A DNA stretch of 40,644 bases. Source: Candidatus Omnitrophota bacterium. GTDB lineage: Bacteria; Ratteibacteria; UBA8468; MWAK01. Where the stretch lies: contig JAZDPL010000090.1 of the NCBI GenBank assembly GCA_043797665.1, forward strand, positions 1 through 40,644. The letters are read 5' to 3'. This document shows positions 13,804-37,538 of this stretch, in pieces. The position numbers and the translations under genes are program-made. Numbering within the stretch: the first letter of the stretch is position 1; each line of letters starts with the position of its first letter. Below the pieces are notes generated by a model. It did not search any database and was not told where the DNA came from. It saw only the letters and a list, made by a program, of their open reading frames with translations.

Positions 13804-13889
13804 GTAGGGGTTTGATTTATCAAACCCGAGGGATACGGGCGCCCTTCCCAATTCAATGGGAAGGGGACCCGCATAAATGGCGCCCCTAC
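13804..13889. repeat. GTAG REP doublet carrying a nested 29-bp mini-hairpin (13843-13871)
   Basis: Removing CCTTCCCAATTCAATGGGAAGGGGACCCG restores GGGCGCCATAAATGGCGCCCCTAC. Confidence 0.85.
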
Positions 13890-13917
13890 ATTTCAAATGG
13901 CGAAGAAAATTTAAAAG

Positions 13918-16900
13918 ATGGAGGTGGAAATGGCCCTGAAAATTGTTGTGGTAACTAATATGATACTGAAAAGGTTGACAGGTTTTTTGGGGTGTCTGGT
14001 TTTAGCGATTCTGTTGGTGATAGGGTTCTCGCACAGCATTCCGGCGAATGGCAGCGTTTCGTTTGCCACGGCGACCAACTACAGCGTGGGAAATTATCCA
14101 GTTTCAGTAACCACAGGAGATTTTAACAGGGACGGTAAGACTGACCTTGCCGTGGCAAATTATAACAGCGACAATGTCTCAATCCTATTAGGTGTTGGAG
14201 ACGGGACATTTGGAGCCGCGACCAACTATAATGCGGGAAGTAGTCCATACTCAGTAACCGCAGGAGATTTTAACGGAGACGGTAAGGATGACCTTGCCGT
14301 GGTAAATTCTGGCAGCGACAATGTCTCAATCCTATCAGGTGCTGGAGACGGGACATTTGGAGCCGCGACCAACTACAGTGCGGGAACCTCTCCCCTTTCA
14401 GTAACCGCAGGAGATTTTAACGGAGACGGCAAGGATGACCTTGCCGTGGCAAATTATTTCGGCGCCAATGTCTCAATTCTATTAGGTGCTGGAGACGGGA
14501 CATTTGAAGCCGCGACCAACTATAATGCGGGAAGTGGTCCAGGCTCAGTAACCGCAGGAGATTTTAACGGAGACGGCAAGCCTGACCTTGCCGTGGCAAA
14601 TTCTGACAGCGCCAATGTCTCAATCCTGATTAATACTACTACTTTTGCTGCCTCCGGCACCTTTGGCGGAGCAGTGAATTACAACGTGGGAACCTATCCA
14701 TTATCAGTAACCACAGAAGATTTTAACAGAGACGGCAAGACTGACCTTGCCGTGGCAAATTTTGACAGCGACAATGTCTCAATCCTATCAGGTGTTGGAG
14801 ACGGGACATTTGAAGCCGCAACCAACTACAGCGTGGGAAGTGTTCCAGTCTCAGTAACCGCAGGAGATTTTAACCGAGACGGCAAGACTGACCTTGCCGT
14901 GGCAAATTATTTCGGCGCCAATGTCTCAATCCTATTAGGTGCTGGAGACGGGACATTTGGAGCCGCGACCAACTACAGCGTGGGAGATGGTCCAGTCTCA
15001 GTAACTACAGGAGATTTTAACAGGGACGGCAAGACTGACCTTGCCGTGGCAAATTCTGAAAGCGACAATGTCTCTATCCTGTCAGGTGTTGGAGACGGGA
15101 CATTTGGAGCCGCGACCAACTACAGCGTGGGAAGTGTTCCAGTCTCAGTAACCGCAGGAGATTTTAACCGAGACGGCAAGACTGACCTTGCCGTGGCAAA
15201 TTTTAACAGCGCCAATGTCTCAATCCTGTCAGGTGTTGGAGACGGGACATTTGGAGCCGCGACCAACTACAACGTGGGAACCTCTCCATTCTCAGTAACC
15301 GCAGGAGATTTTAACCGAGACGGCAAGACTGACCTTGCCGTAGCAAATGTTGACAGCGCCAATGTCTCAATCCTGTCAGGTGTTGGAGACGGGACATTTG
15401 GAGCCGCGACCAACTACAGCGTGGGAACCTCTCCAGCCTCAGTAACCGCAGGAGATTTTAACCGAGACGGCAAGACTGACCTTGCCGTAGCAAATTCTGG
15501 CAGCGCCAATGTCTCAATTCTGTCAGGTGTTGGAGACGGGACATTTGAAGCAGCGACCAACTACAGTGTGGGAACCTCTCCATACTCAGTAACCGCAGGA
15601 GATTTTAACCGAGACGGCAAGACTGACCTTGCCGTGGCAAATGCTGAAAGCGCCAATGTCTCTATTTTGCTCAACAAAGTTTTTGTAATAACCGCCTCGG
15701 CCGGCAGTAATGGAAGCATCGCTCCGTCCGGTGCAGTCAGCGTCAATTATGGAGCCAGCCAGACATTCACCATAACCCCGGATACCGGATACCAGGTGGC
15801 TGACGTTCTGGTAGATTCGGTTTCTCAGGGTGCGGTTACCAGTTACACCTTCACCAACGTAACCGCAAACCACACCATATCGGCCAGTTTTGCTATCAAC
15901 ACCTACACCATAACCGCCTCTGCCGGCAGTAATGGAAGCATCGCTCCGTCCGGTGCGGTCAGCGTCAACTATGGAGCCAGCCAGGCATTTACCATCACCC
16001 CGGCAACCGGATACCAGGTGGCTGATGTTCTGGTGGATTCGGTTTCTCAGGGTGCGGTTACCAGTTACACCTTCACCACCGTCACCGCAAACCACACCAT
16101 CTCGGCCAGTTTTGCCATCAACACCTATACCATAACCGCCTCGGCCGGCAGTAATGGAAGCATCGCTCCCTCCGGTGCGGTCAGCGTCAACTATGGAGGT
16201 AGCCAGGCATTCACCGTCACGCCGGCAACCGGATACCAGGTGGCTGACGTTCTGGTGGACGGAAGTTCGGTGGGTGCGGTTACCAGTTACACCTTCACCA
16301 ATGTCACCGCAAATCACACCATATCCGCTAATTTTGCCGTCAACACCGACACCAACCAGCCTCCGACCAAGCCGGACGCTTCTCAAACCATTCTCAGATA
16401 TTTCCCGTCTTTATCGGAAGTCAATTACGACCAGGTCAACCTGGACTTTCCCATCCAGATAACCGGCCAGGCATTTACAGACAATGACAGCAGCGACACC
16501 CATCTGGCCAGCCAGTTCCGGGTGTTCTGCGGAACTGATGTGGTCTTTGCCGACACCGTAACGAACAATACCCTGACTCAGACGGTGATGTCCAGCATCA
16601 TCCTGCAGCCGGGGAAAACGCACGGGGTTCAGATTCGCTACCAGGACAACCATCTTGACTGGTCCGAATGGTCGGACAACCGAAATTTCATAGTGGTGGC
16701 AAAATCGGGCACCAGGGACGCAGACAACGACGGAGTGGCTGACGACAGCGAAGCAACCGATACCATGCTGGCAGAATACGGTTTAAGCGAATACGCCGGT
16801 CTTGACACGGCCAAGGTGATATTAGATGCGGTACAATCACTGCCGGTTCTGGTGGAAATAACCGGGGCCGACAGCATTGCCTACCTGTTAGCCGTGAACC

Positions 16901-18462
16901 CGGAGGGAACCCCTCCGGTCGGCAGCACTCCCTATGGATTGTTCAATGTCCGCATTGAAGGGGTGCCGGATGACAGCCAGGTGATTCATCTGACATTTAC
17001 TTTCCCGACCAGCCTGCCGCCGGATACCTTGTGGTACAAGTATGACGACACAAAAACCGACAGCTGGCTGGTTTACGATGATGTGATTATCACCGGAAAT
17101 ACCGTGGTGGTTGAACTGGAAGACGGCGGCAAAGGAGATGCGGACCAGGTCAAAAACGGCATCATCGTAGACCCGTCCGGCCCGGTAGTTCTCCCCAGCG
17201 ACTCCGGCGGTTCGTTGAGTGCAATAAGCGGCGGAGGTGGCTGTTTCATCGCTACCGCGGCCTTCGGTTCCTACCAGGAGCCGCACGTCTGGGTCTTAAG
17301 AATGTTCCGCGACCGGTTCCTTATGACCAGACCGGCCGGCCGGGCGTTCATCCGCTTCTACTACCGGCACAGCCCGGCGATTGCCGACTGGATTTCCGGA
17401 CGGGAATGGGCCCGGACGATGACCAGAACCTGCCTGCTGCCTTTGTACGGACTGGCCTACCTGATGGTTTCGGGAATAGGTTGGGTGCTCCTGGCAATGG
17501 TAGCGGCAATAGTTGGGTTGTTTGTAGGGGCGCGGTTCATCGCGCCCGCGGGTCGGACCCTCCTACGCCAAGGCTTCGGCGGACAGGTAAATCCGACCCC
17601 TACGTTGGTTAGGGTTTTTGTCTTTAGTTTCTTTCTTTTTTCTTCCACCCCGGTTTCCGGCCTGGACGCCAACCGTTTCTCCATGGCGGTGGGTGAAGAT
17701 GCGTTCTTAGTGAACCACTCCGCGGTGACCGTACCCAGGGGAGACGGCCAGTTCGGTCTTTTCTACACTTACGCTTATTGGCCGCTGGAAGGTACGGTTA
17801 GCGGGGTGAAACAAAAGTTGGTCAAGGACAACAACGTGCTGACCTTCAATGCGGCTTACGGTTTCACCGACAAGTTCCAGTTGGGTCTGTCGTTTCCCTA
17901 CCTGGTCAGCCAGGATTCCGAACTGACGGGAGTAAAGGACAACTCAGCCGGAGACCTGAAGATAGAAGGTAAATACCGTTTCTGCGGGGGCAAAGACCAG
18001 ATGGGCTTTGCCATTTTGCCGTTTGTGACGTTCACCACCGGCAACGACGAATTCGTCAACTCGCCGGCTTATTTCGGAGCCAAGTCAGCCACCGGTGGAA
18101 TAGTATTGATTGCCGACCGCAGATGGGATAACCACACACATCTCGTTTTCAACCTGGGCTACCAGTTCCAGAAAAAGGAGGAACTGCCGGACTTTGACAT
18201 TGAAAACACCCTGCTTTTCGGCCTGGGTGCCAGCCGGAAACTGAAAAACGACAAGACCAGATTGACTCTGGAAATCAACGGCCGTGCCGACGGAGACACC
18301 TGGTTTGACAAGGAAGAATCTACCCCAATTGAAGCCATCGGCTCGGTTACCCAGTCAGTATCCAAAAATGTTTCTCTGACTCTGGGCCTGGGTACAGGTC
18401 TGAACGAGGGCTACGGCGCACCAAACTACCGGACGCTCCTGGGCCTGCGCGCCGGGTTCTGA
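13918..18462 (+). CDS. Large surface protein: FG-GAP/VCBS repeats, InlB-B/Flg_new-like repeats, choice-of-anchor-U-like domain, CFI-box-CTERM, C-terminal outer-membrane beta-barrel
   Basis: Signal peptide; 11 x GDFNxDGKxDLAVAN; 3 x [27 protein letters not shown]...[30 protein letters not shown]...LR.FRD..L....YY..SP; beta-rich C-terminus ending LRAGF. The start may be at 13930 or 13960. Confidence 0.8.
14062..15675 (+). repeat. Intragenic tandem FG-GAP repeats, 11 units of ~147 bp (4+7)
   Basis: Near-identical DNA units TCAGTAACCGCAGGAGATTTTAAC..GACGGCAAG..GACCTTGCCGT.GCAAAT. Confidence 0.9.
15688..16347 (+). repeat. Three tandem 222-bp (74 aa) InlB-B/Flg_new-like repeats
   Basis: ATAACCGCCTC.GCCGGCAGTAATGGAAGCATCGCTCC recurs at 15688, 15910 and 16132. 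Confidence 0.9.
17524..17603. repeat. GTAG REP doublet inside the coding sequence, with nested 30-bp mini-hairpin (17558-17587)
   Basis: GTAGGGGCGCGGTTCATCGCGCCC-GC-GGGTCGGA[CCCTCCTACGCCAAGGCTTCGGCGGACAGG]TAAATCCGACCCCTAC; read as [27 protein letters not shown]. Confidence 0.85.
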
Positions 18463-18512
18463 AAAACAGCAAAGGATATTATGGGTATTGTTGGTAATCC
18501 GATAAAAAATTT

Positions 18513-19565
18513 ATGGCAAAAGAGAGAGTAAGAGTAGTAGACTTAACTAAACCGGAGACCTTGTCGGAAGACACCAAATACGACATCGCTCTTCGGCCGG
18601 GCAATTTTGGTGACTTTATCGGCCAGGGCAAGATTAAAGAGAACCTTAAAGTCTTTATTGAAGCGGCTAAAGAGCGGAATGACCCTTTAGACCACACCCT
18701 CTTTTTTGGTCCGCCGGGTTTAGGAAAGACCACCATGGCGCATATCATCGCCAACGAGATGGGTGTAAAGATTAAGGCTACCTCCGGCCCGGCGATAGAA
18801 CGGCCCGGTGACCTGGCCGGTTTACTTACGAACTTAGAGCGGGCTGACGTCCTCTTTATTGACGAGATTCACCGGCTCAGCCGGGTGGTGGAAGAGTACC
18901 TCTATGGTGCGATGGAAGACTTCCATATTGACATTATGACCGGCGATGGTCCCCGGGCGAACGCCATCCGTCTCAACCTGAAGCCTTTTACCCTGTTAGG
19001 TGCCACCACCCGTTCCGGTCTTTTAACCGCTCCATTTCGTTCCCGGTTTGGTATCACCCTTCGTCTGGACTATTATCCGGCCGAGGAACTGTCCGCCATC
19101 GTAAAACGTTCCGCAAAGATTATGGGCGTTACGGTTGAGGAAGGCGCCGCAGAAGAGATTGCCCGGCGCAGCCGGGGTACGCCCAGGATAGCCAACCGGC
19201 TCTTACGCCGGGTTCGCGACTTCGCTCAGGTATCCAAAGCAAGAATTATTCAGCGCGACCTGACTATTTCTGCTCTTAACCGCCTGGATGTTGACCGTTT
19301 CGGTTTGGACGAAATGGACAAACGTATCCTGGAGGTGATTATCCATAAATTTTCCGGCGGTCCGGTGGGCTTAAAAACTCTTTCCGTGGCGGTAAGCGAA
19401 GAGACGGACACCCTGGAAGAGATTTACGAGCCATTTTTAGTCAGAGAGGGGTACTTAGAGCGTACATCCAAGGGCCGCCGGGTCACGGTGCGTGCTTACC
19501 AGCACCTTGACCTTCCGGTACCGGCCTCTCGTCGTTCTGATTCACCTTCTCTTTTTATTTCCTGA
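18513..19565 (+). CDS. ruvB: Holliday junction branch migration helicase RuvB
   Basis: LRP..F.DFIGQ, GPPGLGKTT, TSGPAIE, LFIDEIHRL, GATTRSG, SRGTPRIANRLLRRVRD. Confidence 0.97.
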   Translation: MAKERVRVVDLTKPETLSEDTKYDIALRPGNFGDFIGQGKIKENLKVFIEAAKERNDPLDHTLFFGPPGLGKTTMAHIIANEMGVKIKATSGPAIERPGDLAGLLTNLERADVLFIDEIHRLSRVVEEYLYGAMEDFHIDIMTGDGPRANAIRLNLKPFTLLGATTRSGLLTAPFRSRFGITLRLDYYPAEELSAIVKRSAKIMGVTVEEGAAEEIARRSRGTPRIANRLLRRVRDFAQVSKARIIQRDLTISALNRLDVDRFGLDEMDKRILEVIIHKFSGGPVGLKTLSVAVSEETDTLEEIYEPFLVREGYLERTSKGRRVTVRAYQHLDLPVPASRRSDSPSLFIS

Positions 19566-19590
19566 AAAGTCAATTATTTGTGAAAAAATT

Positions 19591-19648
19591 GTAGGGGTTC
19601 AATTTATTGAACCCGAAAAATATCGGGCTTGATAAATCAAGCCCCTAC
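19591..19648. repeat. GTAG REP doublet
   Basis: GTAGGGGTTCAATTTATTGAACCC ... GGGCTTGATAAATCAAGCCCCTAC. Confidence 0.9.
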
Positions 19649-19662
19649 AGTTTAAGGCGAGG

Positions 19663-20388
19663 GTGCGAATTATGTTGTCGGCCGATAATTTACGCAAACA
19701 GTATCACGGCAAACCGGCGGTAGACAATATCTCCCTTAAGGTAGAACCGGGTGAGATTGTTGGCCTTCTGGGTCCCAACGGCGCTGGCAAAACGACCACC
19801 TTTTACATCCTGGTCGGATGGCTCCCTCCGGATGAGGGAAAAGTATATCTGAACGGTCAGGAGATAACCAGCCTGCCGATGTACCGCCGGGCAAGGTTGG
19901 GTTTGGGATACCTGCCCCAGGAACCCTCGGTCTTTCGCAAGATGTCCGTGGCCGATAACCTGACCGCAGTCCTTCAATTCCAACCAATATCCAAAGAGGA
20001 ACAGGATGTTCGCCGGGACCAGGCGTTGGAAAAGATTGGACTTACCGCTCTTGCGGCCAGGACTGCGGAGACCCTTTCCGGAGGCGAACGCCGGAAGGTG
20101 GAGATTGCCCGGAGCCTTGTGCTCAACCCCTCTTTTCTTCTTCTGGACGAACCCTTCAGCGGGATTGACCCGATTACCATTGAAGACCTGCGCGGTACCA
20201 TCCGCCGGTTGGCTGATGATGGTATCGGTATTTTAATCACCGACCATAACGTTCGCGAGACCCTGGCCATCACGAACCGTTCCTACCTTATCTTTCAGGG
20301 CAGGACCCTGATTTCCGGTTCCAGCCGGGAACTGGTCGAACATCCGGAAGCCCGGCGCTTCTACTTAGGCCAATCCTTTACCCTGTAA
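19663..20388 (+). CDS. lptB: LPS export ABC transporter ATPase LptB
   Basis: GLLGPNGAGKTT, GYLPQEPSVFRK, LSGGERR.VEIAR, LLDEPFSGIDP, ITDHNVRETL, YLG..F.L. The start may be at 19672. Confidence 0.92.
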   Translation: MRIMLSADNLRKQYHGKPAVDNISLKVEPGEIVGLLGPNGAGKTTTFYILVGWLPPDEGKVYLNGQEITSLPMYRRARLGLGYLPQEPSVFRKMSVADNLTAVLQFQPISKEEQDVRRDQALEKIGLTALAARTAETLSGGERRKVEIARSLVLNPSFLLLDEPFSGIDPITIEDLRGTIRRLADDGIGILITDHNVRETLAITNRSYLIFQGRTLISGSSRELVEHPEARRFYLGQSFTL

Positions 20389-20403
20389 TTATCGGGAAAA
20401 ACT

Positions 20404-21090
20404 ATGCATGTTGCGATTATAATGGATGGGAATGGCCGGTGGGCTAAAAAACGGGGTTTGCCCCGTATCTTTGGTCATAAAGCGGGCGCTGACCGCATCG
20501 ATGAAATTGTCCGCGCCTGTCCGGACTTAGGTGTAAAAAGCCTTACCCTTTTTGCCTTTTCAACCGAAAACTGGAAGAGGCCGCGCCCAGAAGTGAAATT
20601 CCTGATGGAACTTATGGCGGAGAAGATTAAATCTAAGATACCCCAGATGCAAAGAGAGGGGGTGCGCATCCGATTTTTAGGTGACCGCTCTGTCTTCTCT
20701 AAAAAGATGCAGAACCTGATGACCGAGAGCGAAGCAGAAACCGCAAAAGGTCAAAAAGTTAATCTTTCTCTCGGTCTCAATTACGGAAGTCAGAATGAGA
20801 TTGTCCGGGCGGTGCGGAATGTCTGCCAGGACGTTCACGAAGGTAAATTGCAAATGTCCGAAATTACCGAAGACCTCTTTGCGCGTTATCTGGATACCCG
20901 GGAACAGCCTCCTCCGGATCTGATTATCCGGACCAGCGGAGAACAGAGGATTTCCAATTTCTTACTCTACCAATCCGCCTACGCGGAATTCTACTTTACC
21001 CAAACCTTCTGGCCCGATTTCAATGCCGAAGAATTTGCGAAGACGCTGGAAGATTTTAAGCAGCGCCAGCGCCGTTTCGGCAAATTATAG
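20404..21090 (+). CDS. uppS: Undecaprenyl diphosphate synthase
   Basis: HVAIIMDGNGRWA, FAFSTENWKRP, DLIIRTSGEQRISNFLL, RRFG. Confidence 0.96.
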   Translation: MHVAIIMDGNGRWAKKRGLPRIFGHKAGADRIDEIVRACPDLGVKSLTLFAFSTENWKRPRPEVKFLMELMAEKIKSKIPQMQREGVRIRFLGDRSVFSKKMQNLMTESEAETAKGQKVNLSLGLNYGSQNEIVRAVRNVCQDVHEGKLQMSEITEDLFARYLDTREQPPPDLIIRTSGEQRISNFLLYQSAYAEFYFTQTFWPDFNAEEFAKTLEDFKQRQRRFGKL

Positions 21091-21095
21091 GAAAA

Positions 21096-21168
21096 TGTCA
21101 TTCCCGCACGTATTAAGCGGGAATCCACTATTTTTCTTTATGTCATTCTGAGCGAGAGCGAAGAATCT
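21096..21168 (+). repeat. Two tandem TGTCA-type REPs (CCCGC and TCTGAG subfamilies)
   Basis: TGTCATTCCCGCACGTATTAAGCGGGAATCCA (21096-21127) and TGTCATTCTGAGCGAGAGCGAAGAATCT (21141-21168). Confidence 0.85.
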
Positions 21169-21172
21169 CTTT

Positions 21173-24324: not shown

Positions 24325-24536
24325 TGTCATTCCCGCATGCGTCCCCTCTGTCATTCCCGCATGCTGTAAGCGGGAATCCAGGGGGTAGCCGCAGGCTTCA
24401 GCCGGCGGGTTTACCCTGCGCAACCCAAAATGTAGTGCGACCCCTGAAACAAGTTCAGGGCAGGCTCTTTTAGGATTGCTATAGCGAGGCTAAAAGCCCC
24501 CTATCCAATCCTATGGAAAGGGCACCCGTGCACTAC
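24325..24536. repeat. Mixed REP cluster (TGTCA partial+full pair, GTAGCCGC-type REP, GTAGTGCG-type doublet with two nested mini-hairpins)
   Basis: 24325-24380 has the same architecture as the reverse complement of 27345-27400. GTAGCCGCAGGCTTCAGCC starts at 24385. GTAGTGCGAC...GCACTAC (24432-24536) carries inserts at 24442-24464 and 24499-24528. Confidence 0.75.
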
Positions 24537-24559
24537 ATCAAATTTTTAATGCCCCTAAT

Positions 24560-26898: not shown

Positions 26899-28062
26899 AT
26901 GGTGGATAAGGATAAATCCTCCCGGGCGGTTTCAGTTGGTTCCGTAAAGATTGGCGGCAGGGCGCCGGTTTCGGTCCAGGGAATGACCAAAACCAAGACC
27001 GCTGATTATAAAGCCACTCTGAAACAGTTGCGGCGCTTGGAATCTGCCGGTGCGGAGATTATCCGGATGGCAATACGGGATGAAGGAGACCTGGTTTCTT
27101 TCCGCCGTCTCAAAAAGATAGCCGGGGTGCCGTTGGTGGCGGATATTCATTTCCGGAGTGACTTGGCTATTGGTGCCATATCCGCGGGCGCGGACAAGGT
27201 AAGGCTCAACCCCGGTAATATTTCCGAACCGAAAAAGTTGCGGGAAATTATCAGAACCGCAAAAAAAGCCGGTATCGCGATACGCATCGGCGTCAACGCC
27301 GGTTCCTTAAAATCCAGCCTGTCCCTGTATTCAGTAAGCAGGGATGGATTCCCGCTTACTACACGCGGGAATGACAGAGGGCAGGCACGCGGGAATGACA
27401 TGGAGGTAGAACGGTTAGCGGAAAAGATGGTTTCTGCTGCGGGTGATTACATATCTCTTTTTGAGCGCGAAGGTTTCCCAAATTTGATTGTTTCTCTAAA
27501 GGCTTCCACAGTACGCACGACAATTCTGGCGAACCGGCTCTTCCGCCGGCAGTTTGATTACCCCCTCCATTTAGGCATCACCGAAGCCGGACGGGGTTCC
27601 CTGGCTGTTATCAAGAGTGCGCTCGGTATCGGTTCTTTACTTCAGGAAGGTATCGGGGATACTATCAGAGTTTCTCTTTCCGAACCGCCGGAGGAAGAAG
27701 TGGAGATTGGCCGGAAGATTCTTCAGTCGTTAGGTTTACGGCATTTCTATCCGGAAGTTATATCCTGCCCGACCTGCGGTCGGTCTCAGATAGATTTATT
27801 TGCGGTTCTGGATAAGGTGGAGTCAGGCATGAGAAGATTACCCGGATATCCGGAGAGGTATGCGGGACTAAAAATCGCGGTGATGGGGTGTGAGGTGAAC
27901 GGACCCGGTGAAGCCTCGTCTGCGGATATCGGTATTGCGGGCGGCCGCGGTATGGGTCTGCTTTTTTCCCGGGGCAAGGTAATCGCTAAAGTGCCGGAAA
28001 CCGGATTGGCAGGCCGCCTTTTGCAAGAACTTAAGAAGTTCCACACAAGGAGAGACAGATGA
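26899..28062 (+). CDS. ispG: (E)-4-hydroxy-3-methylbut-2-enyl-diphosphate synthase
   Basis: VSVQGMTKTKT, PLVADIHF, RLNPGNI, IRIGVNAGSL, YPLHLGITEAG, GDTIRVSL, SCPTCGR, AVMGCEVNGPGEA. Confidence 0.96.
   Translation: MVDKDKSSRAVSVGSVKIGGRAPVSVQGMTKTKTADYKATLKQLRRLESAGAEIIRMAIRDEGDLVSFRRLKKIAGVPLVADIHFRSDLAIGAISAGADKVRLNPGNISEPKKLREIIRTAKKAGIAIRIGVNAGSLKSSLSLYSVSRDGFPLTTRGNDRGQARGNDMEVERLAEKMVSAAGDYISLFEREGFPNLIVSLKASTVRTTILANRLFRRQFDYPLHLGITEAGRGSLAVIKSALGIGSLLQEGIGDTIRVSLSEPPEEEVEIGRKILQSLGLRHFYPEVISCPTCGRSQIDLFAVLDKVESGMRRLPGYPERYAGLKIAVMGCEVNGPGEASSADIGIAGGRGMGLLFSRGKVIAKVPETGLAGRLLQELKKFHTRRDR
27345..27400 (-). repeat. TGTCA-type REP (full plus partial) inserted in frame in ispG
   Basis: TGGATTCCCGCTTACTACACGCGGGAATGACA (exact reverse complement of 13169-13200) followed by GAGGGCAGGCACGCGGGAATGACA. 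Confidence 0.9.
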
Positions 28063-29229: not shown

Positions 29230-29679
29230 ATGGCAGACAACCTTTTGGCGGAGGCGTACCGGATTCTGGCTCGCCGGGCTTATACCCGGGCCGAAATGGC
29301 AAAGAAGTTGGAAGGGAAAGCTCCAGCCGAAGAGGTGGAGGAGGTTTTAAACAATCTGGCACAAGCCGGTTACCTTGACGACCGGGCTTTTGTCCGGGAA
29401 TATATCCAGCAGCGCCTCAGCCTCAGACCCTCGGGCCGGCGGCTTTTAGAAATGAAACTGAGAGCCAAGGGTGTTGCGCCGGTGGTAATAAAAGAGGTTC
29501 TGGATGATGCGTTAAATCCCCAGGACGAGGAAGAAGCGGCAAAGGTACTGGCGGAGAAGAAATCTGCTTCCCTGAAAGGTCTGGATGAGGCGGCCCGGCA
29601 GCGCCGGATCTATCAATTTTTGCTCAGCCGGGGTTTTTCTCCGCAGGTAGCTGGCAAATACGCCAGATTTTCCGATTAA
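29230..29679 (+). CDS. recX: Regulatory protein RecX
   Basis: A.RILARR.YT.AEM..KL, GYLDDRAF, G.R.L..KL..KGV, FLLSRGF; lies upstream of alaS. Confidence 0.88.
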   Translation: MADNLLAEAYRILARRAYTRAEMAKKLEGKAPAEEVEEVLNNLAQAGYLDDRAFVREYIQQRLSLRPSGRRLLEMKLRAKGVAPVVIKEVLDDALNPQDEEEAAKVLAEKKSASLKGLDEAARQRRIYQFLLSRGFSPQVAGKYARFSD

Positions 29680-29689
29680 CTAAAGCGAT

Positions 29690-29853
29690 GGTATTCGGGT
29701 ACGAAAATTAGCGGAGCAACAGTAACAAAACAAGCAAAATGAGGGAATGAGTAGCCGGGGCCTGCCTTGGGGTATAGGCAGGAACACGGCGAGGCTCGTT
29801 CCTGAATTGCGTAGTTTTGTCTGGAGCGCAGCTCCTTTTCGTACCCGAATACC
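29690..29853. repeat. 164-bp long imperfect hairpin with 18-bp perfect terminal inverted repeats (MITE-like)
   Basis: GGTATTCGGGTACGAAAA (29690-29707) / TTTTCGTACCCGAATACC (29836-29853); internal pairings GGAGC/GCTCC, ACAAAAC/GTTTTGT, GGAATGAG/CTCGTTCC. Confidence 0.65.
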
Positions 29854-29864
29854 GGAGCATCCAT

Positions 29865-32486
29865 ATGCAAAGTTTTGAGGTCAGGCAGAAGTTCCTTGAT
29901 TTCTTCGCGGGAAAGGGGCATACCGTGGTACCGGGAATTCCCCTGGTCCCGCCGGAAGACCCCACTTTGCTCTTCACTTCCGCGGGAATGGTGCCTTTCA
30001 AGAATTTCTGGGCGGGCAGCGGCGAACTCCCCTATCTTCGCGCCGCGAGCGTTCAGAAATGCCTCCGGGCCGGCGGTAAGGACAGTGATTTGGAAAATGT
30101 AGGCTACGATACCCGGCATCACACCTTCTTTGAGATGTTGGGCAATTTCTCTTTCGGGGACTATTTCAAGGAGGGTGCGATAGATTTTGCCTGGGAGTTT
30201 GTGATGGAGTATCTGCATTTTCCCGAAGAGAATCTCTGGGTTTCCGTTTACGAAAAGGATGAAGAGGCTTTTGCACTCTGGAAGAAGTTTCTACCCGCGA
30301 ATAAGATTGTCCGGTTGGGTGAGAAGGATAATTTCTGGGGTCCGGCCGGTGAGACCGGTGTCTGCGGTCCCTGTTCGGAAATCTATTTTGACCGGGGCAG
30401 AAAATTTTCCTGCGGTAAGACCGGGTGTGCGCCGGGGTGTGACTGCGAAAGGTATCTGGAATTCTGGAACCTGGTTTTTCCGCAGTTTAACAAGACCAGG
30501 GATGGAACCTTTCTTCCCTTAGCCAGGAAAGGGATAGACACCGGCATGGGCCTGGAGCGGGTTACCTCTTTATCGGAAGGAAAGGAATCGGATTTTGAGA
30601 CTGATCTTTTCCTGCCCGTCATCAGGCGGCTTGAGGAATTAACCGGATGTCGTTACGGAAAGGATGAGGCGGGTACGATTGCTTTCCGGGTGGTGGCTGA
30701 CCATATCCGGCTCTTGACCTTTGCCATTGCCGAGCACATCCTGCCCGCCAACGAAGGCCGGGGATACGTCATCCGCAGGATTTTGCGCCGGGCGGTAAAG
30801 TTCTTGCGAACTCTGACTAAAGACGAGGTTGAGTTAAGTCATCTGGTGCCGGAGGCGGTGCGGATAATGTCGCCTTATTACACCTACCTTGTTCAGGAAG
30901 AGAAATTTGTGCAGGAGACGGTTGCCGATGAAGAGGAACGCTTTTTGAGCCTTTTGACCGAAGGTCACCGTCTCTTCCATCAGTTCTCCTCGGAATTTGC
31001 CAGGGGCACCGTACCCGGGAAGACCGCTTTTCAACTCTACGATACCTACGGTCTCCCTTTAGATACCATCAAAGAGATTGCCGCCGAAGATAATTTGAAG
31101 GTTGACCAGGCCGGTTTTGAAGAAGAGCTGACCAGAGCAAGAACCGCCAGCCGCAAGGCGATGACTTTGGAACTGGATATTGACCGCAGCCTTTTAGCCG
31201 GTCTGCCGCCGACAAAGTTTGTCGGTTACGAAACCATCCGCCTGGATTCTGAGGTATTGGCGGTAATTCCGTTAGACAAGGAACAATATTCTCTGGTCCT
31301 TACCGAAACGCCGTTCTATCCGGAACGGGGCGGCCAGAAGGGTGACCGGGGTTTAATAAAGGCAGACGGTTTTGAATTTGAGGCGGCTGAAACCAGGATA
31401 GACGAAACCGGGTTTATTCACCATCTCGGCAAGTTCCGCAAAGGTGAAGCGGAAAAAGGCAGCAAGGCTACCGGTGGTCGGGCTACCCTTGAGGTTGACT
31501 ACCAGCATCGTCAGCAGACCGCAGCCAACCATACCGCCACCCATCTCCTTCACTCCGCCTTGCGCCAGGTTCTGGGGAAAGAAGTTAAACAGGCGGGTTC
31601 CCTGGTCGCACCGGAAAGCCTGCGTTTCGATTTCCTTTATTCCGGCGAAATACGTATGGAATCCCTGGACCGGGTGGAGGAATTAGTGAACGAAACCATC
31701 GGACGCAATATCCCGGTAATTAAGGAAGAGAAGGTTTTACGGGAAGCGGTGGAGGAAGGTGCGACCGCATTATTCACCGAGAAGTACGGTGAGCAGGTAC
31801 GGGTAATTACGGTGGGTGATTTCAGCAAGGAGGTCTGCGGCGGAACGCACCTTGATGCTACCGGCAACATTGGCCTTTTTATCATCACCGGCGTTTCTTC
31901 CATCGGCAAAGGAATAAAGCGGGTGGAAGCCCTCACCGGAAAGAACGCTTACCTTTGGATGAAGAAACACCTTGGGATTCTTTCCAATCTGGCGGAGCGC
32001 TTAAAGACGGAACCTCTTTCCGTAATCGCCGAGTTGGAACGCCGGGAGAAGGAGGAGCAGAAAACAAAGAGAAAGTTGAGCGCCTTTCTTTTGGTATACC
32101 TTAATCAGGAAAAAGAAAAGGGTCTCAAAAATAAAAAAGTCATTGCCGGATTTTCTCTTCTGGCAAGCAGTCAGCCGTTTCTTGTACCCGAAGAAGCCAG
32201 GTTGCTGGTAGATGAACTCAAGAAGGGTTCAGTTAGAAGCGTTATTCTGGTCCTGCTCCCGGGGGAAGGCCGAAGCCTTCTCTTTCTGGGATTGACCCGG
32301 GACCTGGTGACCGAAGGTTTTAAGGCAAACGAGATTCTGCGGGAGATAACCCCTGCCTTTGGCGGAGGTGCGGGCGGGAGAGAGGACTTTGCTCAGGCCG
32401 GTTTGAAAAAAGTAGGTTCGCTTGCCGAAATAGAGAAGGTTTTGGTTAAGTGGTTGCTAAACAATAAATACTTGGAAAAGAGATGA
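29865..32486 (+). CDS. alaS: Alanine--tRNA ligase
   Basis: DPTLLFTSAGM, QKCLRAGGK..DLENVG...RHHTFFEMLGNFSFGDYFK, IDTGMGLER, HTATHLL, EVCGGTH, GGGAGG. Start taken at MQSFEVR. Confidence 0.97.
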   Translation: MQSFEVRQKFLDFFAGKGHTVVPGIPLVPPEDPTLLFTSAGMVPFKNFWAGSGELPYLRAASVQKCLRAGGKDSDLENVGYDTRHHTFFEMLGNFSFGDYFKEGAIDFAWEFVMEYLHFPEENLWVSVYEKDEEAFALWKKFLPANKIVRLGEKDNFWGPAGETGVCGPCSEIYFDRGRKFSCGKTGCAPGCDCERYLEFWNLVFPQFNKTRDGTFLPLARKGIDTGMGLERVTSLSEGKESDFETDLFLPVIRRLEELTGCRYGKDEAGTIAFRVVADHIRLLTFAIAEHILPANEGRGYVIRRILRRAVKFLRTLTKDEVELSHLVPEAVRIMSPYYTYLVQEEKFVQETVADEEERFLSLLTEGHRLFHQFSSEFARGTVPGKTAFQLYDTYGLPLDTIKEIAAEDNLKVDQAGFEEELTRARTASRKAMTLELDIDRSLLAGLPPTKFVGYETIRLDSEVLAVIPLDKEQYSLVLTETPFYPERGGQKGDRGLIKADGFEFEAAETRIDETGFIHHLGKFRKGEAEKGSKATGGRATLEVDYQHRQQTAANHTATHLLHSALRQVLGKEVKQAGSLVAPESLRFDFLYSGEIRMESLDRVEELVNETIGRNIPVIKEEKVLREAVEEGATALFTEKYGEQVRVITVGDFSKEVCGGTHLDATGNIGLFIITGVSSIGKGIKRVEALTGKNAYLWMKKHLGILSNLAERLKTEPLSVIAELERREKEEQKTKRKLSAFLLVYLNQEKEKGLKNKKVIAGFSLLASSQPFLVPEEARLLVDELKKGSVRSVILVLLPGEGRSLLFLGLTRDLVTEGFKANEILREITPAFGGGAGGREDFAQAGLKKVGSLAEIEKVLVKWLLNNKYLEKR

Positions 32487-33283
32487 ATAAAGAGACAGAA
32501 CTGTTTCTCCGGTTGGAAAAGGGTGACGAATCCGCCCGGGCCGAGATTGTACAGGTCTGCCAGCGTCTGGTTGCCAAAGTCGCCCGCAATTACGTCCGCA
32601 AATCCAAGTTTTCGGTCTCGGAATTGATGGCGGAGGGATACGTTGGTCTTTTGCAGGCAATAGAAAAGTTTAACCGGAAAAAAGCGGCTAAGGAAAAAGT
32701 TAAATTCAGTTCCTATGCCTACTGGTGGATTCGGCGTTACGTCATCCGCGCTGTAACCCAGGGGCAATCTCTTCTTGCGGTGCCGGAGAATACCTCGGAG
32801 TTAATGAGTCAATACAGCCATTTTTCCGATATCATAACCCAGGAATTGGGCCGGGAACCCACCGACGCGGAAGTTCAGAAGGGTCTGGCTCTCACCAACG
32901 GCCAGATGAAGCGGTTTGTCCGGCGCCGGGATTTAAAGGAAGTTTCGTTTGACAGTACCGTCTCCCGGGATAAAGAAAACAGGACCTTATCCGAGGTTAT
33001 CGGAGATGAGAGTAAGGAAGGGACCTCCAGGATACAGAAGGTAGTGAAGCGTCTGGAAGACGAAGGCATTCTGGAAAAACTCTTTTCGGTCCTTACTCCA
33101 TTAGAGAAGGAAGCGATTACTCTTAAGTTCGGTTTGGAAAACCAGATTCCGCTTAGTTATCAGAAGGTAGGAAAGAAGTTGAGCCGGTCTTTGAGTCGTC
33201 AGCGTGTCCATCAGATAGTGACCATAGCGCTTCAGAAGTTAAAGAAAAAAAATAAGGGAAAAACGTCTTTTTTGGAGGCATAA
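32483..33283 (+). CDS. Sigma-70 family alternative sigma factor (RpoD/RpoS-like, no region 1.1)
   Basis: QRLVAKVARNY, ELMAEGYVGLLQAIEKF, KFSSYAYWWIR, LGREPT, region 4 HTH LSYQKVG...SRQRVHQI...AL.KLK. Confidence 0.85.
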   Translation: MNKETELFLRLEKGDESARAEIVQVCQRLVAKVARNYVRKSKFSVSELMAEGYVGLLQAIEKFNRKKAAKEKVKFSSYAYWWIRRYVIRAVTQGQSLLAVPENTSELMSQYSHFSDIITQELGREPTDAEVQKGLALTNGQMKRFVRRRDLKEVSFDSTVSRDKENRTLSEVIGDESKEGTSRIQKVVKRLEDEGILEKLFSVLTPLEKEAITLKFGLENQIPLSYQKVGKKLSRSLSRQRVHQIVTIALQKLKKKNKGKTSFLEA

Positions 33284-33805
33284 ATGGAAAAGGAAAGTCT
33301 GCAGGGTTTAATCCGTAATATTCCTGATTTTCCGAAGAAAGGAATCCTCTTCCGGGATATTACACCGCTTCTGGCGGATGGGCCATCTTTCCGGTCCGCA
33401 GTTGATATTCTGGCTTCAGCCTGTCCGGCGGGTACTCAGGCGGTCGCCGGCATCGAATCGCGCGGGTTTATCTTCGGCGCCGGCGTAGCCAATTCTTTAG
33501 GAGTTGGTTTTGTGCCGATTCGAAAGTCGGGTAAACTTCCTTACCGGACGGAAAAGATTACTTATGCTTTAGAGTACGGCACCGATAATCTTGAAGTCCA
33601 TCAGGATGCTCTGGCGGGCCGGAACAACGTGGTTCTGGTGGACGACCTCCTGGCTACCGGTGGTACCGCAGAGGCGGCCTGCGGTCTTCTGGAGAAAATA
33701 GGCGGTAAAATTCTGAAGGTTATTTTTTTAATAGAATTGGCTGACCTGAAAGGACGGCAGAAAATTTCCGGTTACGACACCTTCTCCCTGCTCGTTTTTG
33801 ATTAA
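33284..33805 (+). CDS. apt: Adenine phosphoribosyltransferase
   Basis: IPDFPKKGILFRDITPLL, GIESRGF, RKSGKLP, YALEYG, VDDLLATGGT. Confidence 0.96.
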   Translation: MEKESLQGLIRNIPDFPKKGILFRDITPLLADGPSFRSAVDILASACPAGTQAVAGIESRGFIFGAGVANSLGVGFVPIRKSGKLPYRTEKITYALEYGTDNLEVHQDALAGRNNVVLVDDLLATGGTAEAACGLLEKIGGKILKVIFLIELADLKGRQKISGYDTFSLLVFD

Positions 33806-33827
33806 TGCTACCCGAATATGATATAAT
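33798..33827 (+). promoter_or_regulatory. Putative promoter of the rpsF operon
   Basis: TTGATT (33798-33803), 18-nt spacer, extended -10 TGATATAAT (33819-33827). Confidence 0.5.
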
Positions 33828-33839
33828 ATAAAATTTAAG

Positions 33840-33965
33840 GGTAAATACTCAGTGAACGTCGTTAGTGTAGGGGTCGGATTCATCCGACCCGCATATCTTT
33901 CGGGCTCAATAAATTGAGCCCCTACATTTTTGGCCCGATATAACGTACTTCACTGAATATTTTAC
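33840..33965. repeat. Composite palindromic element (outer shell plus GTAG doublet 33867-33925)
   Basis: GGTAAATACTCAGTGAACGTCGTTA ... TAACGTACTTCACTGAATATTTTAC; inverted copy of 990-1116. Confidence 0.85.
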
Positions 33966-33978
33966 ATTTTACGGGGGT

Positions 33979-34290
33979 ATGATGGAGCGAGATTACGAAG
34001 GGCTTCTTATTCTGGAACCGGCCCTTTCGGAAGAAGCGGTGGAAAAGGAGAGCAAGGATATTACCCTTCTCTTTCCGGAAGGAGCGGTAACCTGCCAGAA
34101 TCTGGGTCTTAAGAAGTTTACTTACGAAATTAAGCACCAGGCCCAGGGGTACTATCTTTCAGTTAATTTTAAGGCTGATGCCGGGAAGAGGACCGAATTT
34201 GAGCAGAATGTCCGGTTGAATCCGGCGGTTCTCCGGTATCTAATCATTCTGGCGCCGAGAACAAAAAGGAAGGAAAAAAATGGCAGTTAA
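33979..34290 (+). CDS. rpsF: 30S ribosomal protein S6
   Basis: YEGLLILEP, G.KKFTYEIK....GYY...F, VLRYLII; first gene of rpsF-ssb-rpsR. Confidence 0.88.
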   Translation: MMERDYEGLLILEPALSEEAVEKESKDITLLFPEGAVTCQNLGLKKFTYEIKHQAQGYYLSVNFKADAGKRTEFEQNVRLNPAVLRYLIILAPRTKRKEKNGS

Positions 34291-34693
34291 TGTTAATCGG
34301 GTTATTCTGGCTGGTAATTTGACCCGGGATCCGGAGATGCGGTTTACGCCAGCCGGGACTGCGGTAACCAACCTCGGTCTGGCGGTTAACCGGCAATACA
34401 CAACCAAAGAGGGCGAGCAGCGTAAAGAGGTCTGTTTTATTACGGTGGTAACCTGGGGTAAACAGGCTCAGAGTTGTCAGGAACATCTCAGGAAGGGAAG
34501 TCCGGTATTGGTAGAAGGCAGACTTCAATTCCGAAGTTGGGAAAGTGCGGATAAAGAGAAGCGGAGTATGATAGAAGTGGTTGCGGAAAGAGTCCAATTT
34601 TTAAGCAGGCGAGAGGAAGAAGGAGGAGGTACGGTCGGTGAAGAAAACAGCGGATACGAATCAGCGGAAGAAACGAAAGAACAAGAAGGATAA
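34280..34693 (+). CDS. ssb: Single-stranded DNA-binding protein
   Basis: [27 protein letters not shown]-like motif, KGS.VLVEGRL..RSW; acidic tail without the usual terminal PF. Confidence 0.93.
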
Positions 34694-34913
34694 AAAATTT
34701 GTGGTTTTCCGGGCGCGGAGATGCCGTTTTTGCGAAGCCGGCGTTATTGATATTGACTACAAAGACAGCGGATTCTTAAGGCGGTTTCTTTCCGCTCGCG
34801 GAAAGATACTGGCGGCCCGTTTTACGGGAAACTGCGCCAAGCACCAGCGCAAATTAGGTAACGCGGTTAAACGAGGCCGTTTTATGGGTCTTTTACCCTA
34901 CATGGTTCGGTGA
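34638..34913 (+). CDS. rpsR: 30S ribosomal protein S18
   Basis: [38 protein letters not shown]. Confidence 0.93.
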
Positions 34914-34927
34914 CCGCGTTCCCCAGC

Positions 34928-34955
34928 TGTCATCCTGAGCGATAGCGAAGGATCT
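34928..34955 (+). repeat. TGTCA-type REP
   Basis: TGTCATCCTGAGCGATAGCGAAGGATCT. Confidence 0.8.
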
Positions 34956-34964
34956 ATCATTCCT

Positions 34965-35423
34965 ATGAAAGTAATCTTACGAACGGCGGTTCCTGGTTTA
35001 GGTCAGACCGGAGAAATAAAAGAAGTGGCTGACGGTTATGCCCGCAACTATCTCCTTCCCCGGCAGACGGCTTATAAGTCAACTCCGACTGCGGAAAAGA
35101 GAGTGGCTGAGGAACAGAAACTTAAAGCCAAAAAAGAGGAAAAAGAACACCGCGGAGCGCTGGAACTGGCTGCCAGGCTGAAAGATGTTTCGTTGACCAT
35201 TTCGGTTGCGGTGGGCGACCAGGAGCAGTTATACGGTTCGGTAAACGAACGGGATATTATCTCGGCTCTGTCTGCGGAATATCAGATAGATTTAGATCCG
35301 AAGGCGGTTAAGTTAGAGGAACCCATCAAACAGGTAGGGGTTTATCGTGTTCCGGTACGCGTTAGAGAAGGCGTGGAGAGCACGATAACCGTTTGGGTAG
35401 TTAAAGGGGTGGTTGCCGAATAA
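34965..35423 (+). CDS. rplI: 50S ribosomal protein L9
   Basis: MKVIL...V.GLG..GEI.EVADGYARNYLLP, LYGSV, PIK.VG.Y.V. Confidence 0.95.
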   Translation: MKVILRTAVPGLGQTGEIKEVADGYARNYLLPRQTAYKSTPTAEKRVAEEQKLKAKKEEKEHRGALELAARLKDVSLTISVAVGDQEQLYGSVNERDIISALSAEYQIDLDPKAVKLEEPIKQVGVYRVPVRVREGVESTITVWVVKGVVAE

Positions 35424-35433
35424 TAAAAAAGTG

Positions 35434-36786
35434 ATGGGCAACGCCAATCTTGAAATCCTGGAAGAACGAGTCCCTCCTCAAAACCTGGAAGCCGAGATGG
35501 CCCTTCTGGGTTCTATGCTCCTTTCCGAAGATGCCCGGCTTCAGGTGATTCAAGAGGTACGGCAGGAATATTTTTATAAGAAGGCAAACGGTCGTATCTT
35601 TGAAACCATCCTGAAACTTTTTGAAGAAAATCAGCCCTGTGATTTGGTGACCCTCACCGATGCTTTGAACCGGGAAGGAACGTTGAAAGAATTAGGTGGA
35701 CCCGCCTACTTAGCCGGTTTGATTGACCTGGTTCCTACCCCGGCCAACGTAGGACAATACCTGAAGATTGTCAAGGACCATTTCGTCCGGCGTTCGCTCA
35801 TCGAAAAATGTTCTGAAATTATCGGCAAGAGTTACCATCTTTCCGATAACGTGGATGATCTTCTGGACGAGTCCGAGCAGACTATCTTCCGCATCTCGGA
35901 AGGGCAGAAGAAAACAGAACTTATTTCAATCCGGGACCTGGTGCACCAGAACTTTGAGACGCTGACCAAACTCTATCAGCGCCACGAACATCTCACCGGA
36001 CTTCCCACCGGTCTGGAGAAATTAGATGAAATCACCAGCGGTCTGCAAAATGCAGACCTGATGGTCATCGCTTCCCGGCCCTCAATGGGCAAGACCTCAT
36101 TAGCCTGTTCCATTGCCCGGTATTTGGTGGTGGAGAAGAAAGTCCCGGTACTTATCTTCAGTCTGGAAATGAGTTGCGACCAGTTCGTTCAGCGGATGAT
36201 TTGTTCGGAAGCCCGGGTCAACCTGCGCAACTTGCGGAGCGGTTTTTTGCAGGAATCGGAATGGGCCCAACTTACCCTGGCAGCGGGTAAACTGAGTGAA
36301 GCGCCCCTTTACATTGACGATACGCCGGGTCTTTCTTCCTTAGATATTAGAGCCAAAGCGCGTCGGCTGGTTGCCCGGGAAGGCATCAAGATGGTCTTTG
36401 TGGATTATCTTCAATTAGTGCGCAGCCGGCGGAGGGCCGAGAACCGCCAGCAGGAAATCAGCGAGATTTCCGCGGACATGAAGAACCTGGCTAAAGAATT
36501 AAATATTCCGGTAGTATCCCTTTCCCAGTTATCCCGGGCCGTGGAAATGCGCACGGACCACCGGCCCCAGTTATCCGACCTGCGCGAAAGCGGTTCCATT
36601 GAGCAGGATGCGGACGTGGTTCTCCTGCTCCTGCGGGAGGAGCAGTACAATTCCACTCCGGAAAACGAAGGTCTGGCAGAACTGATTGTCGCTAAACAGC
36701 GTAATGGTCCCACCGGCTCTTTCAACCTTACTTTCATTAAAGAATACACCCGTTTTGAAAACTGGACCGGCCGCCAATCCCCGTAA
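35434..36786 (+). CDS. dnaB: Replicative DNA helicase DnaB
   Basis: PPQNLEAE..LLG, ASRPSMGKT, FSLEMS, VDYLQL, LSQLSR, RPQLSDLRESGSIEQDAD, AKQRNGPTG; no intein. Alternative TTG start at 35413. Confidence 0.96.
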   Translation: MGNANLEILEERVPPQNLEAEMALLGSMLLSEDARLQVIQEVRQEYFYKKANGRIFETILKLFEENQPCDLVTLTDALNREGTLKELGGPAYLAGLIDLVPTPANVGQYLKIVKDHFVRRSLIEKCSEIIGKSYHLSDNVDDLLDESEQTIFRISEGQKKTELISIRDLVHQNFETLTKLYQRHEHLTGLPTGLEKLDEITSGLQNADLMVIASRPSMGKTSLACSIARYLVVEKKVPVLIFSLEMSCDQFVQRMICSEARVNLRNLRSGFLQESEWAQLTLAAGKLSEAPLYIDDTPGLSSLDIRAKARRLVAREGIKMVFVDYLQLVRSRRRAENRQQEISEISADMKNLAKELNIPVVSLSQLSRAVEMRTDHRPQLSDLRESGSIEQDADVVLLLLREEQYNSTPENEGLAELIVAKQRNGPTGSFNLTFIKEYTRFENWTGRQSP

Positions 36787-36787
36787 A

Positions 36788-37492
36788 ATGGTAGCGGTAA
36801 TCTTAGCCGCCGCCGGTAAAGGCACCCGGTTAGGTTTTGAGGATGCAAAACCTTTCGTAAAACTGGCCGGTCGTCCTATTCTTACCTACAGTTTAGCCCT
36901 CTTTGAAAAAATTTCCGAAATCAATTCAGTCATTCTGGTTGTGGATGCGGACAAGGTTAAAGAAGCGAGGGTCCTGGTTTCCGGGAGCGGTTTTAAAAAA
37001 GTGGCGCAAATAATCCCGGGAGGCGCGGTTCGGCAGGAGTCGGTTTCCCGAGGATTGGCGGTCATTCCGCCAGAGACGAAGGTAGTCTTGGTCCACGACG
37101 CGGCCCGGCCCCTGGTTTCCCAAGAAAAAGTTGTAGAATTAATTGCCGCGGGCAGAAAAATGGCAACCATTCCCGCCTTACCGGTTTCCGACACCCTGAA
37201 AGAGGTAAAAGAAGGTAGGGTTATCAGAACAGCGGACCGCAGCCGTTTTTACGCGGTTCAAACCCCTCAGGCTTTTCCCCGGCAAGTTATCTGTACCGCT
37301 TACCGAAAAGCAAAAGAATCCGGTCTGCCGGGGACCGACGATGCTTGCCTCGTGGAATCAGCCGGTTTTCCGGTACAGGTGATTGCTGGCGAGCGGACCA
37401 ACATCAAGATTACCTATCCGGAAGACCTGCTCATTGCCGAAGCATTATTGCACATCTGTCATTCTGAGCGTAGCGAAGAATCTAATTGGTAG
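36788..37492 (+). CDS. ispD: 2-C-methyl-D-erythritol 4-phosphate cytidylyltransferase
   Basis: AAAGKGTR, GG..RQESV..GL, VHDAARP, QTPQAF, TDD, NIKITYPEDL. The C-terminal CHSERSEESNW is REP-derived. Confidence 0.93.
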   Translation: MVAVILAAAGKGTRLGFEDAKPFVKLAGRPILTYSLALFEKISEINSVILVVDADKVKEARVLVSGSGFKKVAQIIPGGAVRQESVSRGLAVIPPETKVVLVHDAARPLVSQEKVVELIAAGRKMATIPALPVSDTLKEVKEGRVIRTADRSRFYAVQTPQAFPRQVICTAYRKAKESGLPGTDDACLVESAGFPVQVIAGERTNIKITYPEDLLIAEALLHICHSERSEESNW

Positions 37493-37538
37493 TCGCAGGC
37501 GCCTGCCCCTGCATGCATTAGGCAGGGGTCAGCCTGCG
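37457..37538 (+). repeat. TGTCA REP (37457-37483) plus GTAGTCGC-type REP (37489-37538) carrying a nested 27-bp hairpin (37502-37528)
   Basis: TGTCATTCTGAGCGTAGCGAAGAATCT; GTAGTCGCAGGCG[CCTGCCCCTGCATGCATTAGGCAGGGG]TCAGCCTGCG. Confidence 0.75.

Follow-up and report, generated by a model that had tools for sequence, protein, structure and literature searches.

Two families of 24- to 31-base single-hairpin DNAs, very probably mobile, in a Candidatus Omnitrophota genome

The window analyzed here is the whole 40,644-nucleotide contig JAZDPL010000090.1 (C47) of a Candidatus Omnitrophota genome, in which short hairpins with a 5' tag lie inserted within other repeats. We found that these inserts belong to two families, A and B, with about 170 copies of 24- to 31-base hairpins, among the smallest mobile DNAs known. 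As to mobility alone, we are highly confident that they are non-autonomous mobile DNAs consisting of a single hairpin. An earlier note, made from the letters of the window, had listed five inserts in two classes, tagged CCTG and CGGGT, and had proposed that they were ultra-small mobile units. All five were recovered where it had placed them or within 1-2 bases, the two tags proved to define genome-wide families (CCTG for A, CGGGT for B), and the proposed mobility was borne out by filled and empty orthologous sites in a genome of the same genus.

The source genome (G000; 2.69 Mb in 93 contigs, 48% GC, 86% complete) was analyzed with a comparison set of 65 genomes of the phylum, of which G001 belongs to the same genus (genes about 88-94% identical to those of G000). 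G000 carries 468 repetitive extragenic palindromes (REPs) of one GTAG-tagged pattern, 155 GTCA-tagged hairpins of one pattern and a MITE (miniature inverted-repeat transposable element) family of 22 copies. GTCA hairpins also flank its three small GIY-YIG genes, one of which is broken; the two intact ones lie on C85 and C89. These genes and hairpins match the Ssn nucleases and the Ssn-related motifs (SRMs) as described in the accessible part of PMC11893778.

Family A consists of a purine (R), a CCTG-like tag, a pyrimidine (Y) and a hairpin. Its main form is 27 nt long (A27; 59 copies in G000), with rare 23- and 30-nt forms and the tag variants CTTG, CATG and TTTA. Family B consists of a purine, CGGGT, one free base and a hairpin whose last base is G. 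The core is 29 nt long in 86 copies (B29) and 24 nt long in 23 (B24), with six others. As the earlier note had anticipated, further copies exist: strict patterns matched 108 B and 43 A copies in G000, with 0 matches for either reversed control. Two B false positives were removed ahead of the junction counts. An unbiased search for insertions in repeats gave 326 clusters, with net-length peaks at 24 (26), 27 (33), 29 (23) and 30 (14). Furthermore, the B29 stems covary, positions 5, 6, 8 and 9 each showing two to four standard pairs among 33 distinct stems. Both B-in-B and A-in-A nesting occur. No parent REP family with the B apex under another tag was found in G000, save degenerate B copies and a few ATCAA-loop hairpins. 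The impression that there were no free-standing copies did not hold, as free copies exist, many of them in frame in unique genes.

To map the distribution of B, a pattern with an 8-nt loop was run on the 65 genomes, on three further genomes and on viral contigs. It matched 108, 48, 17, 12, 8, 4 and 4 times in seven genomes of a single family, stayed at control level elsewhere among the 65 genomes and gave 0 matches on the viral contigs. A-pattern matches were found in 11 of the 65 genomes, spread over three families. In G052, 8/8 examined matches carry a GTTTA tag on the other strand, as do about one third of those in G013, and the viral-contig matches have an SRM-like apex in 4/39 cases.

Evidence for movement came from the comparison with G001. 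At least four unique coding sites carry an in-frame B24 in G001 and are empty in G000, and at least two REPs of G001 carry a B29 and are likewise empty in G000; most other sites in this comparison lie in repeat blocks replaced wholesale. Conversely, aligning 177 G000 copies to comparison loci yielded 16 two-sided alignments. Clean empty orthologues were seen for one B29, in a unique element, and for one A27; a further four A27 sites proved filled in both genomes, another four copies turned out to be MITE paralogues, and the remainder was uninformative. Relative to its empty orthologue, one more genic A27 adds exactly 27 nt, at G^T, and another genic A27 is common to G000 and G001 and absent in G008. 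The flanks point in the same direction, with 45 distinct contexts among 59 A27 copies and 88 among 109 B24/B29 copies. In agreement with the earlier note, there is no target duplication, the net gain being equal to the core length, and the inserts are not template-switch duplications, since they are not copies of adjacent sequence. Six public read runs held 5-9% of the sequence words, and the four that were aligned gave only relatives of about 90-95% identity and no same-strain empty allele. Counts of possible excision footprints (hosts one base short) were close to the random level for a 9-mer. As a separate observation, a two-copy RNA-like element (C61:86961 and C85:49568; L145, L146) has a B29 at the same position in both copies; its G001 copy is empty there and has a B29 about 60 bases upstream, and it gave no Rfam match.

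We then considered the junctions. In B, a purine precedes the core and a G follows it in 171/171 copies. For 82 of the 171, at least two empty alleles were available in G000, and the top allele had GA for 41 (filled A..G), GG for 20 (filled G..G) and another dinucleotide for 21. Counted over 44 distinct contexts, GA leads in 21 and GG in 8, as the rule given below predicts; 15 contexts misfit, mostly with polymorphic hosts, and AG never leads. The purine tracks the second base of the target (contexts 21, 2, 3, 8; Fisher p 3e-4), and at C85:49568 an orthologous pair displays the change of GA to A[29]G across genomes. The B rule is thus that a 31-nt R..G unit replaces a target G-R, with R matching the second base of the target. 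One MITE site, with a net gain of 30, is an exception. Staggered cutting of the target alone would be expected to yield G..R rather than R..G. The R itself may derive from the target or be selected through pairing. Family A follows a simpler pattern, with a purine on the left in 59/59 copies, a pyrimidine on the right in 54/59 and a net gain of 27.

The inserts of the window are the following.

13842-13872, minus strand: family B unit, 29-nt core 13843-13871 (CGGGT tag and hairpin) with flanking R and G
17558-17587, minus strand: CCTG-tagged variant of family A, 30 nt long, lying within the loop of GTAG REP doublet 17524-17603
24441-24466, minus strand: family A short variant (CCTG tag and 19-nt hairpin), in the left arm of GTAGTGCGAC-type doublet 24432-24537
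24499-24529, minus strand: family B unit (its 29-nt core at 24500-24528), lying within the right arm of GTAGTGCGAC-type doublet 24432-24537
27318-27344, plus strand: family A 27-nt copy, within an SRM repeat that itself lies in frame in a loop of ispG (26899-28062)
37502-37528, plus strand: family A 27-nt copy, in GTAGTCGCAGGC-type REP 37489-37538

The earlier note had all of these except 27318-27344, and had claimed that removing the insert restores the host exactly at three of them. This was confirmed at 17558-17587, an exact insert with 98 empty alleles that lies in frame within the read-through open reading frame (ORF) 13918-18462, and at 13843-13871, where 4 empty alleles read CC on the plus strand, the target being a GG within GTAG REP doublet 13804-13889. 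It failed at 37502-37528, where the left flank is G and the empty hosts have T (4/4 exact-flank empties; with a wider motif, 29 T, 1 A and 0 G). The two inserts that had been judged less clean could both be described. The one given as 24442-24464 is a net 24-nt insert that replaces two C's, with 1 empty allele and a second copy on C72. The one given as 24499-24528 fits the B swap rule, its junction A[29]G being what a GA target would give. A related host is present in G001 (L119). The search of empty alleles found none with exact flanks for this insert, whose swap reading is drawn from the B rule. As for the sixth insert, the IspG loop (27308-27400) is occupied in G000, G001, G003 and G005 by an in-frame repeat that differs from genome to genome, whereas G002 has no repeat there; the loop is thus a recurrent landing spot in a conserved enzyme.

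Hosts of the two families include REPs, SRMs, MITEs and genes. In noncoding DNA, 48/68 B29 fall within the repeat mask vs 30% of motif-matched sites, and 31/34 A27 vs 25%; these class counts are rough, since the gene caller over-calls coding DNA in G000 (93%) and the mask misses low-copy repeats, which probably means that the enrichment is understated. When the insert was removed, 40/59 A27 sites lay in loops, and the B sites (n = 108) lay in loops (42), stems (34), feet (27) or unfolded DNA (5). Compared to random sites matched for the motif, four B24 targets in unique coding DNA showed no better folding (percentiles 0.66, 0.36, 0.68 and 0.0), indicating that hairpins are favored and not required. 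As regards the earlier idea that the inserts target extruded hairpins, a strong enrichment in repeats was supported, and a need for extruded hairpins was not. Within genes the elements add loops of 8-10 residues to proteins, five prepilin leaders included. Indeed, at 5/75 prepilin-like sites an A27 lies directly ahead of the first Phe and ends in a Gly codon. By the established rule for prepilins, the terminal Gly means that the inserts keep the cleavage site. No empty orthologue of a prepilin site was found in five relatives.

What moves the two families is a more tentative matter. The reading that we favor, with rather less than even confidence in the chain as a whole, is that a Y1 HUH enzyme of the REP-associated tyrosine transposase (RAYT) kind, guided by the tag, acts in trans to cut single-stranded hairpins and join them to their targets. 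The window holds one candidate.

11213-11644, plus strand: Y1 HUH transposase gene, RAYT-like, with GTAG REPs on its flanks; candidate mover in trans

In the assembly, no other Y1 gene was found in which the HUH motif is intact, and the match of this one to profile NF047646 scores 63 bits, under the 80-bit cut-off. We infer both the single-strand movement and the HUH cut-and-join. A and B would move as single-stranded DNA, and an enzyme such as the 11213-11644 product would act on them in trans. Four foot bases (C-T-G-Y in A, G-G-G-T in B) would form a guide, the last of which would select the purine before the cut and the third the pyrimidine after it. Cuts would fall at R^C ahead of the tag and at R^T behind the hairpin, and insertion would take place at R^Y with no duplication. 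Repeats would be favored through their exposed single-stranded loops and feet and through their attraction of such enzymes, genic copies would persist mainly at lengths divisible by three (24, 27, 30), and the two-base swap of B would call for an additional step.

This scheme resembles what the accessible parts of PMC3479197 and PMC8266576 describe for TnpA-REP, where the nucleotide in front of the cut is selected by the fourth base of the guide and the one behind it by the third; for one enzyme, a changed guide also redirects the cut. Family A is consistent with such a guide: in 57/59 copies its base 5 could pair with the nucleotide ahead of the left junction, in 57/59 it could pair with the last base of the element, and a pyrimidine follows the element in 54/59. 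Moreover, across nine genomes of the family, which are kin and not independent, B abundance follows GTAG-REP abundance (Spearman 0.94) more closely than SRM abundance (0.78).

Several observations weigh against this assignment. Starting with the guide, the pairing of base 5 in A can also be read as the closing pair of the stem, and G-G-G-T of B fits the left junction only, the base following its right end being G in 71, A in 48 and C in 45 of 171 copies. A itself departs from simple insertion, as it puts G in place of T in one type of host and elsewhere removes up to a few bases of the target on the left, and published HUH chemistry has no target-base swap. As for the gene, the RAYT of the window is flanked by GTAG REPs and not by A or B, and the TnpA-REP of E. 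coli is reported to bind GTAG base-specifically. The earlier note had suggested looking for enzyme genes flanked by the tagged hairpins; nine ORFs are flanked by A/B, none of them a recognizable nuclease by sequence, and no gene was found bracketed by A/B in the way that RAYTs are by REPs. Finally, A-pattern matches occur in three genomes without a GTAG REP of the G000 type, four GTAG-rich genomes of another family lack B, and RAYT-like genes are found in 34/65 genomes, so that their presence does not discriminate.

A bolder extension of the favored reading seems doubtful to us. It would make the 27-31-nt hairpins complete self-guiding transposons that form a lower parasite layer on domesticated REP nucleases, with B integrating by a crossed-order swap of terminal bases (G-R → R...G). 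A and B would then be examples of a widespread tag-plus-hairpin class that takes its apex from the resident nuclease-bound repeat.

The alternative that survives best is a different enzyme, either absent from the 86%-complete assembly or unrecognized in it, that exchanges the two terminal bases of the element for a target dinucleotide. It would account for a B rule that fits no duplication, deletion or coupling rule derivable from the published systems consulted, and for the restriction of B to a single family within the phylum, in which it differs from the RAYT, Ssn and DUF559 genes. No candidate gene was found by profiling that covered three nuclease families and not the whole proteome, and overall we regard this explanation as rather unlikely.

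Almost on a par, although slightly less probable still, is a route through the Ssn nucleases, in which Ssn GIY-YIG nicks near its repeats and a short hairpin oligonucleotide is then captured during host repair, in exchange for one or two bases of the target. Such nick-and-repair agrees with the small target losses, and three Ssn-like genes flanked by GTCA-tagged repeats are at hand in G000. The apices also speak for it, as 25/36 distinct A27 apices differ by at most one base from an SRM apex read in the same orientation, compared to 1/36 in the reverse one. The SRM type is found in 10/11 genomes with A-pattern matches vs 6/54 without, and the gene in 4/4 genomes with at least 10 such matches vs 6/61 others. 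However, the A pattern and the SRM have sequence in common, so this co-occurrence may only reveal where the apex came from; the SRM-rich genomes G003, G006 and G007 have no A match, and the matches in G052 and G013 with the GTTTA tag on the other strand do not fit. Nor does the known specificity, at least as given in the consulted part of PMC11893778: SsnA requires the bases that precede the palindrome and the C that follows it, and it loses activity once the stem sequence is altered, and A lacks these features. According to the same part of that source, SsnA cuts a few bases upstream of its motif, whereas the inserts lie in loops, in stems and inside the tag. Finally, Ssn is a nuclease and is not known to join DNA.

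DUF559 nucleases were tried as a mover of B and rejected. They have CCCCTC-type repeats of their own on their flanks, they are present in 27/65 genomes, many of them without B, and no full REP-flanked copy was found in G000 or G001. In their own right, these genes (L123-L142) are bracketed by inverted CCCCTC-type hairpin repeats at most of the 18 loci viewed. They resemble a third system of the REPtron type, on which we found no paper in the literature searched.

Passive spread, by which a few chance template-switch events would have been amplified with their host repeats and by gene conversion without any mobility of their own, is already largely refuted, and we consider it very unlikely. Some passive copying does occur, with seven identical A27 at a single position of the GTAG doublet and several B copies sharing a position within a MITE, and the apex common to A and the SRMs suggests conversion. 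Against this as the general explanation stand the 88 distinct B and 45 distinct A contexts, the inserts at unique coding sites whose orthologues are empty, the recurrence of one swap in 21 contexts that have no flanks in common and the fact that the inserts do not copy neighboring sequence. An artefact of assembling a repeat-rich metagenome-assembled genome in 93 contigs, with no same-strain reads among the runs examined, can practically be dismissed, given that the same families and four identical filled sites appear in an independently assembled genome of the same genus and that reading frames are preserved in genes.

We also asked how A and B relate to known systems. The closest kind is that of the small dispersed repeats (SDRs) of Nostocaceae, which are very short, dispersed and judged mobile, with no mover assigned there either. 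In the account of Elhai et al. 2008 they reportedly measure about 20-30 nt and nest. By that reported size A and B are alike, being dispersed repeats of about 20-30 nt that are mobile by filled/empty comparison. Citing descriptions, through which alone SDRs were compared (accessible parts of PMC5861425 and PMC4390886), present them as short mobile elements, SDR5 having inserted precisely between bases 3 and 4 of HIP1. Unlike SDRs as presented in those descriptions, A and B occur in another lineage, have fixed 5' tags and, for B, a dinucleotide swap, and target G-R and R^Y steps in REPs, SRMs, MITEs and genes instead of HIP1. We would therefore say that they work like SDRs, not that they belong to them. 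The earlier suggestion that the inserts might be undescribed thus holds, within the literature searched, for the families and the junction rule and not for the kind, since 21-30-nt mobile repeats that insert precisely into repeats have a precedent in the cyanobacterial SDRs. Neither the families nor the tags nor the swap were described in the literature searched, which comprised open-access papers without their supplements.

With GTAG REPs, REP doublets forming hairpins (REPINs) and their RAYTs (compared also on the basis of part of PMC6006769), A and B have in common a short tag 5' of a hairpin, the lack of target duplication and in-frame genic copies; the consulted part of PMC3733652 reports REPs that lie within other palindromes and REPs that lie in frame within genes. 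They differ in their tags, R-CCTG and R-CGGGT instead of GT[AG]G at the hairpin foot, in having no cognate gene bracketed by them, as a REPtron would, and in that filled and empty sites differ by one hairpin (24, 27 or 29 nt) and not by an inverted doublet as in REPINs. In G006, one B lies within a REP that flanks a RAYT gene. On the spread of REP-like repeats, the leading view is that single hairpins are dead remnants, and the accessible part of PMC3116915 argues that REP singlets are immobile; here, single hairpins have moved. MITEs differ from A and B in having terminal inverted repeats and a target-site duplication in place of an asymmetric tag. In IS200/IS605-type elements there are two ends, each with a hairpin and a guide, compared to one hairpin per unit here, and cut sites chosen by pairing with a guide would fit A (57/59, 57/59, 54/59) and, in B, the left junction only.

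The NTS/SRM system is similar in that the GTCA-tagged hosts and the small GIY-YIG genes match and that A has the SRM apex in the same orientation. However, A lacks the GTCATT foot and the post-stem C and has CCTG-Y-C upstream and G-R downstream, the comparison being with the SRM as defined in part of PMC11893778 and not with its degenerate definition. That part of the source makes no mention of inserts within SRMs and treats SRM mobility as no more than a hypothesis. REP-targeting insertion sequences (IS1397, IS621 and others) also use REPs as landing sites, and Rickettsia palindromic elements form in-frame palindromic inserts in proteins (both according to parts of PMC3184786 and PMC3733652). 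As described there, these are full insertion sequences with a transposase or longer palindromes, in contrast to A and B, which are 24-31 nt long and encode nothing. The junction rules are sharp enough for a biochemical test, with the RAYT and an Ssn nuclease of the same genome as candidates and 30-base oligonucleotides as substrates, and a 24-30-base unit inserting precisely where a two-base rule directs it would make an interesting minimal tool for insertion.

One further element of the window concerns a claim of the earlier note.

29690-29854, strand not assigned: long-hairpin element of 165 nt between recX and alaS, its terminal inverted repeats 18 bp long

Its CCTGCC..GGCAGG apex (29761-29782) had been thought akin to the inserts. 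It is not an insert, because two diverged homologues of the element (C4, C43), which show compensatory changes, have an apex of equal length. The element gave no Rfam match at the gathering score, and it may be a MITE or a structured RNA. An Rfam search of the window and four loci likewise gave no match.

Additionally, the 1514-aa ORF 13918-18462 looks like two genes joined by read-through of a REP: a CFI-box-CTERM protein has no stop ahead of the doublet and insert at 17524-17603, a second stretch resembling a signal peptide comes after, and contigs of relatives align only from about 17590. A 463-aa frame at C3:3317-4705 has a Y1-transposase-like N terminus from which the HUH histidines are missing, as well as a membrane segment; its in-frame repeats contain nested inserts. 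At C22:27400-27546 (L152), an A27 copy has given rise to five 24-nt units in tandem, which precede a full copy within an ORF. A 36-nt hairpin inserted in the spacer of GTAG REP doublets in six copies (C16:8781, C40:19365, C79:65036, C85:46776, C89:10186 and C92:66487) is a further insert family. Finally, at C17:21381 and C40:19606, a 19-nt SRM-type hairpin without the CCTG tag replaces about five bases of a GTAG REP arm.

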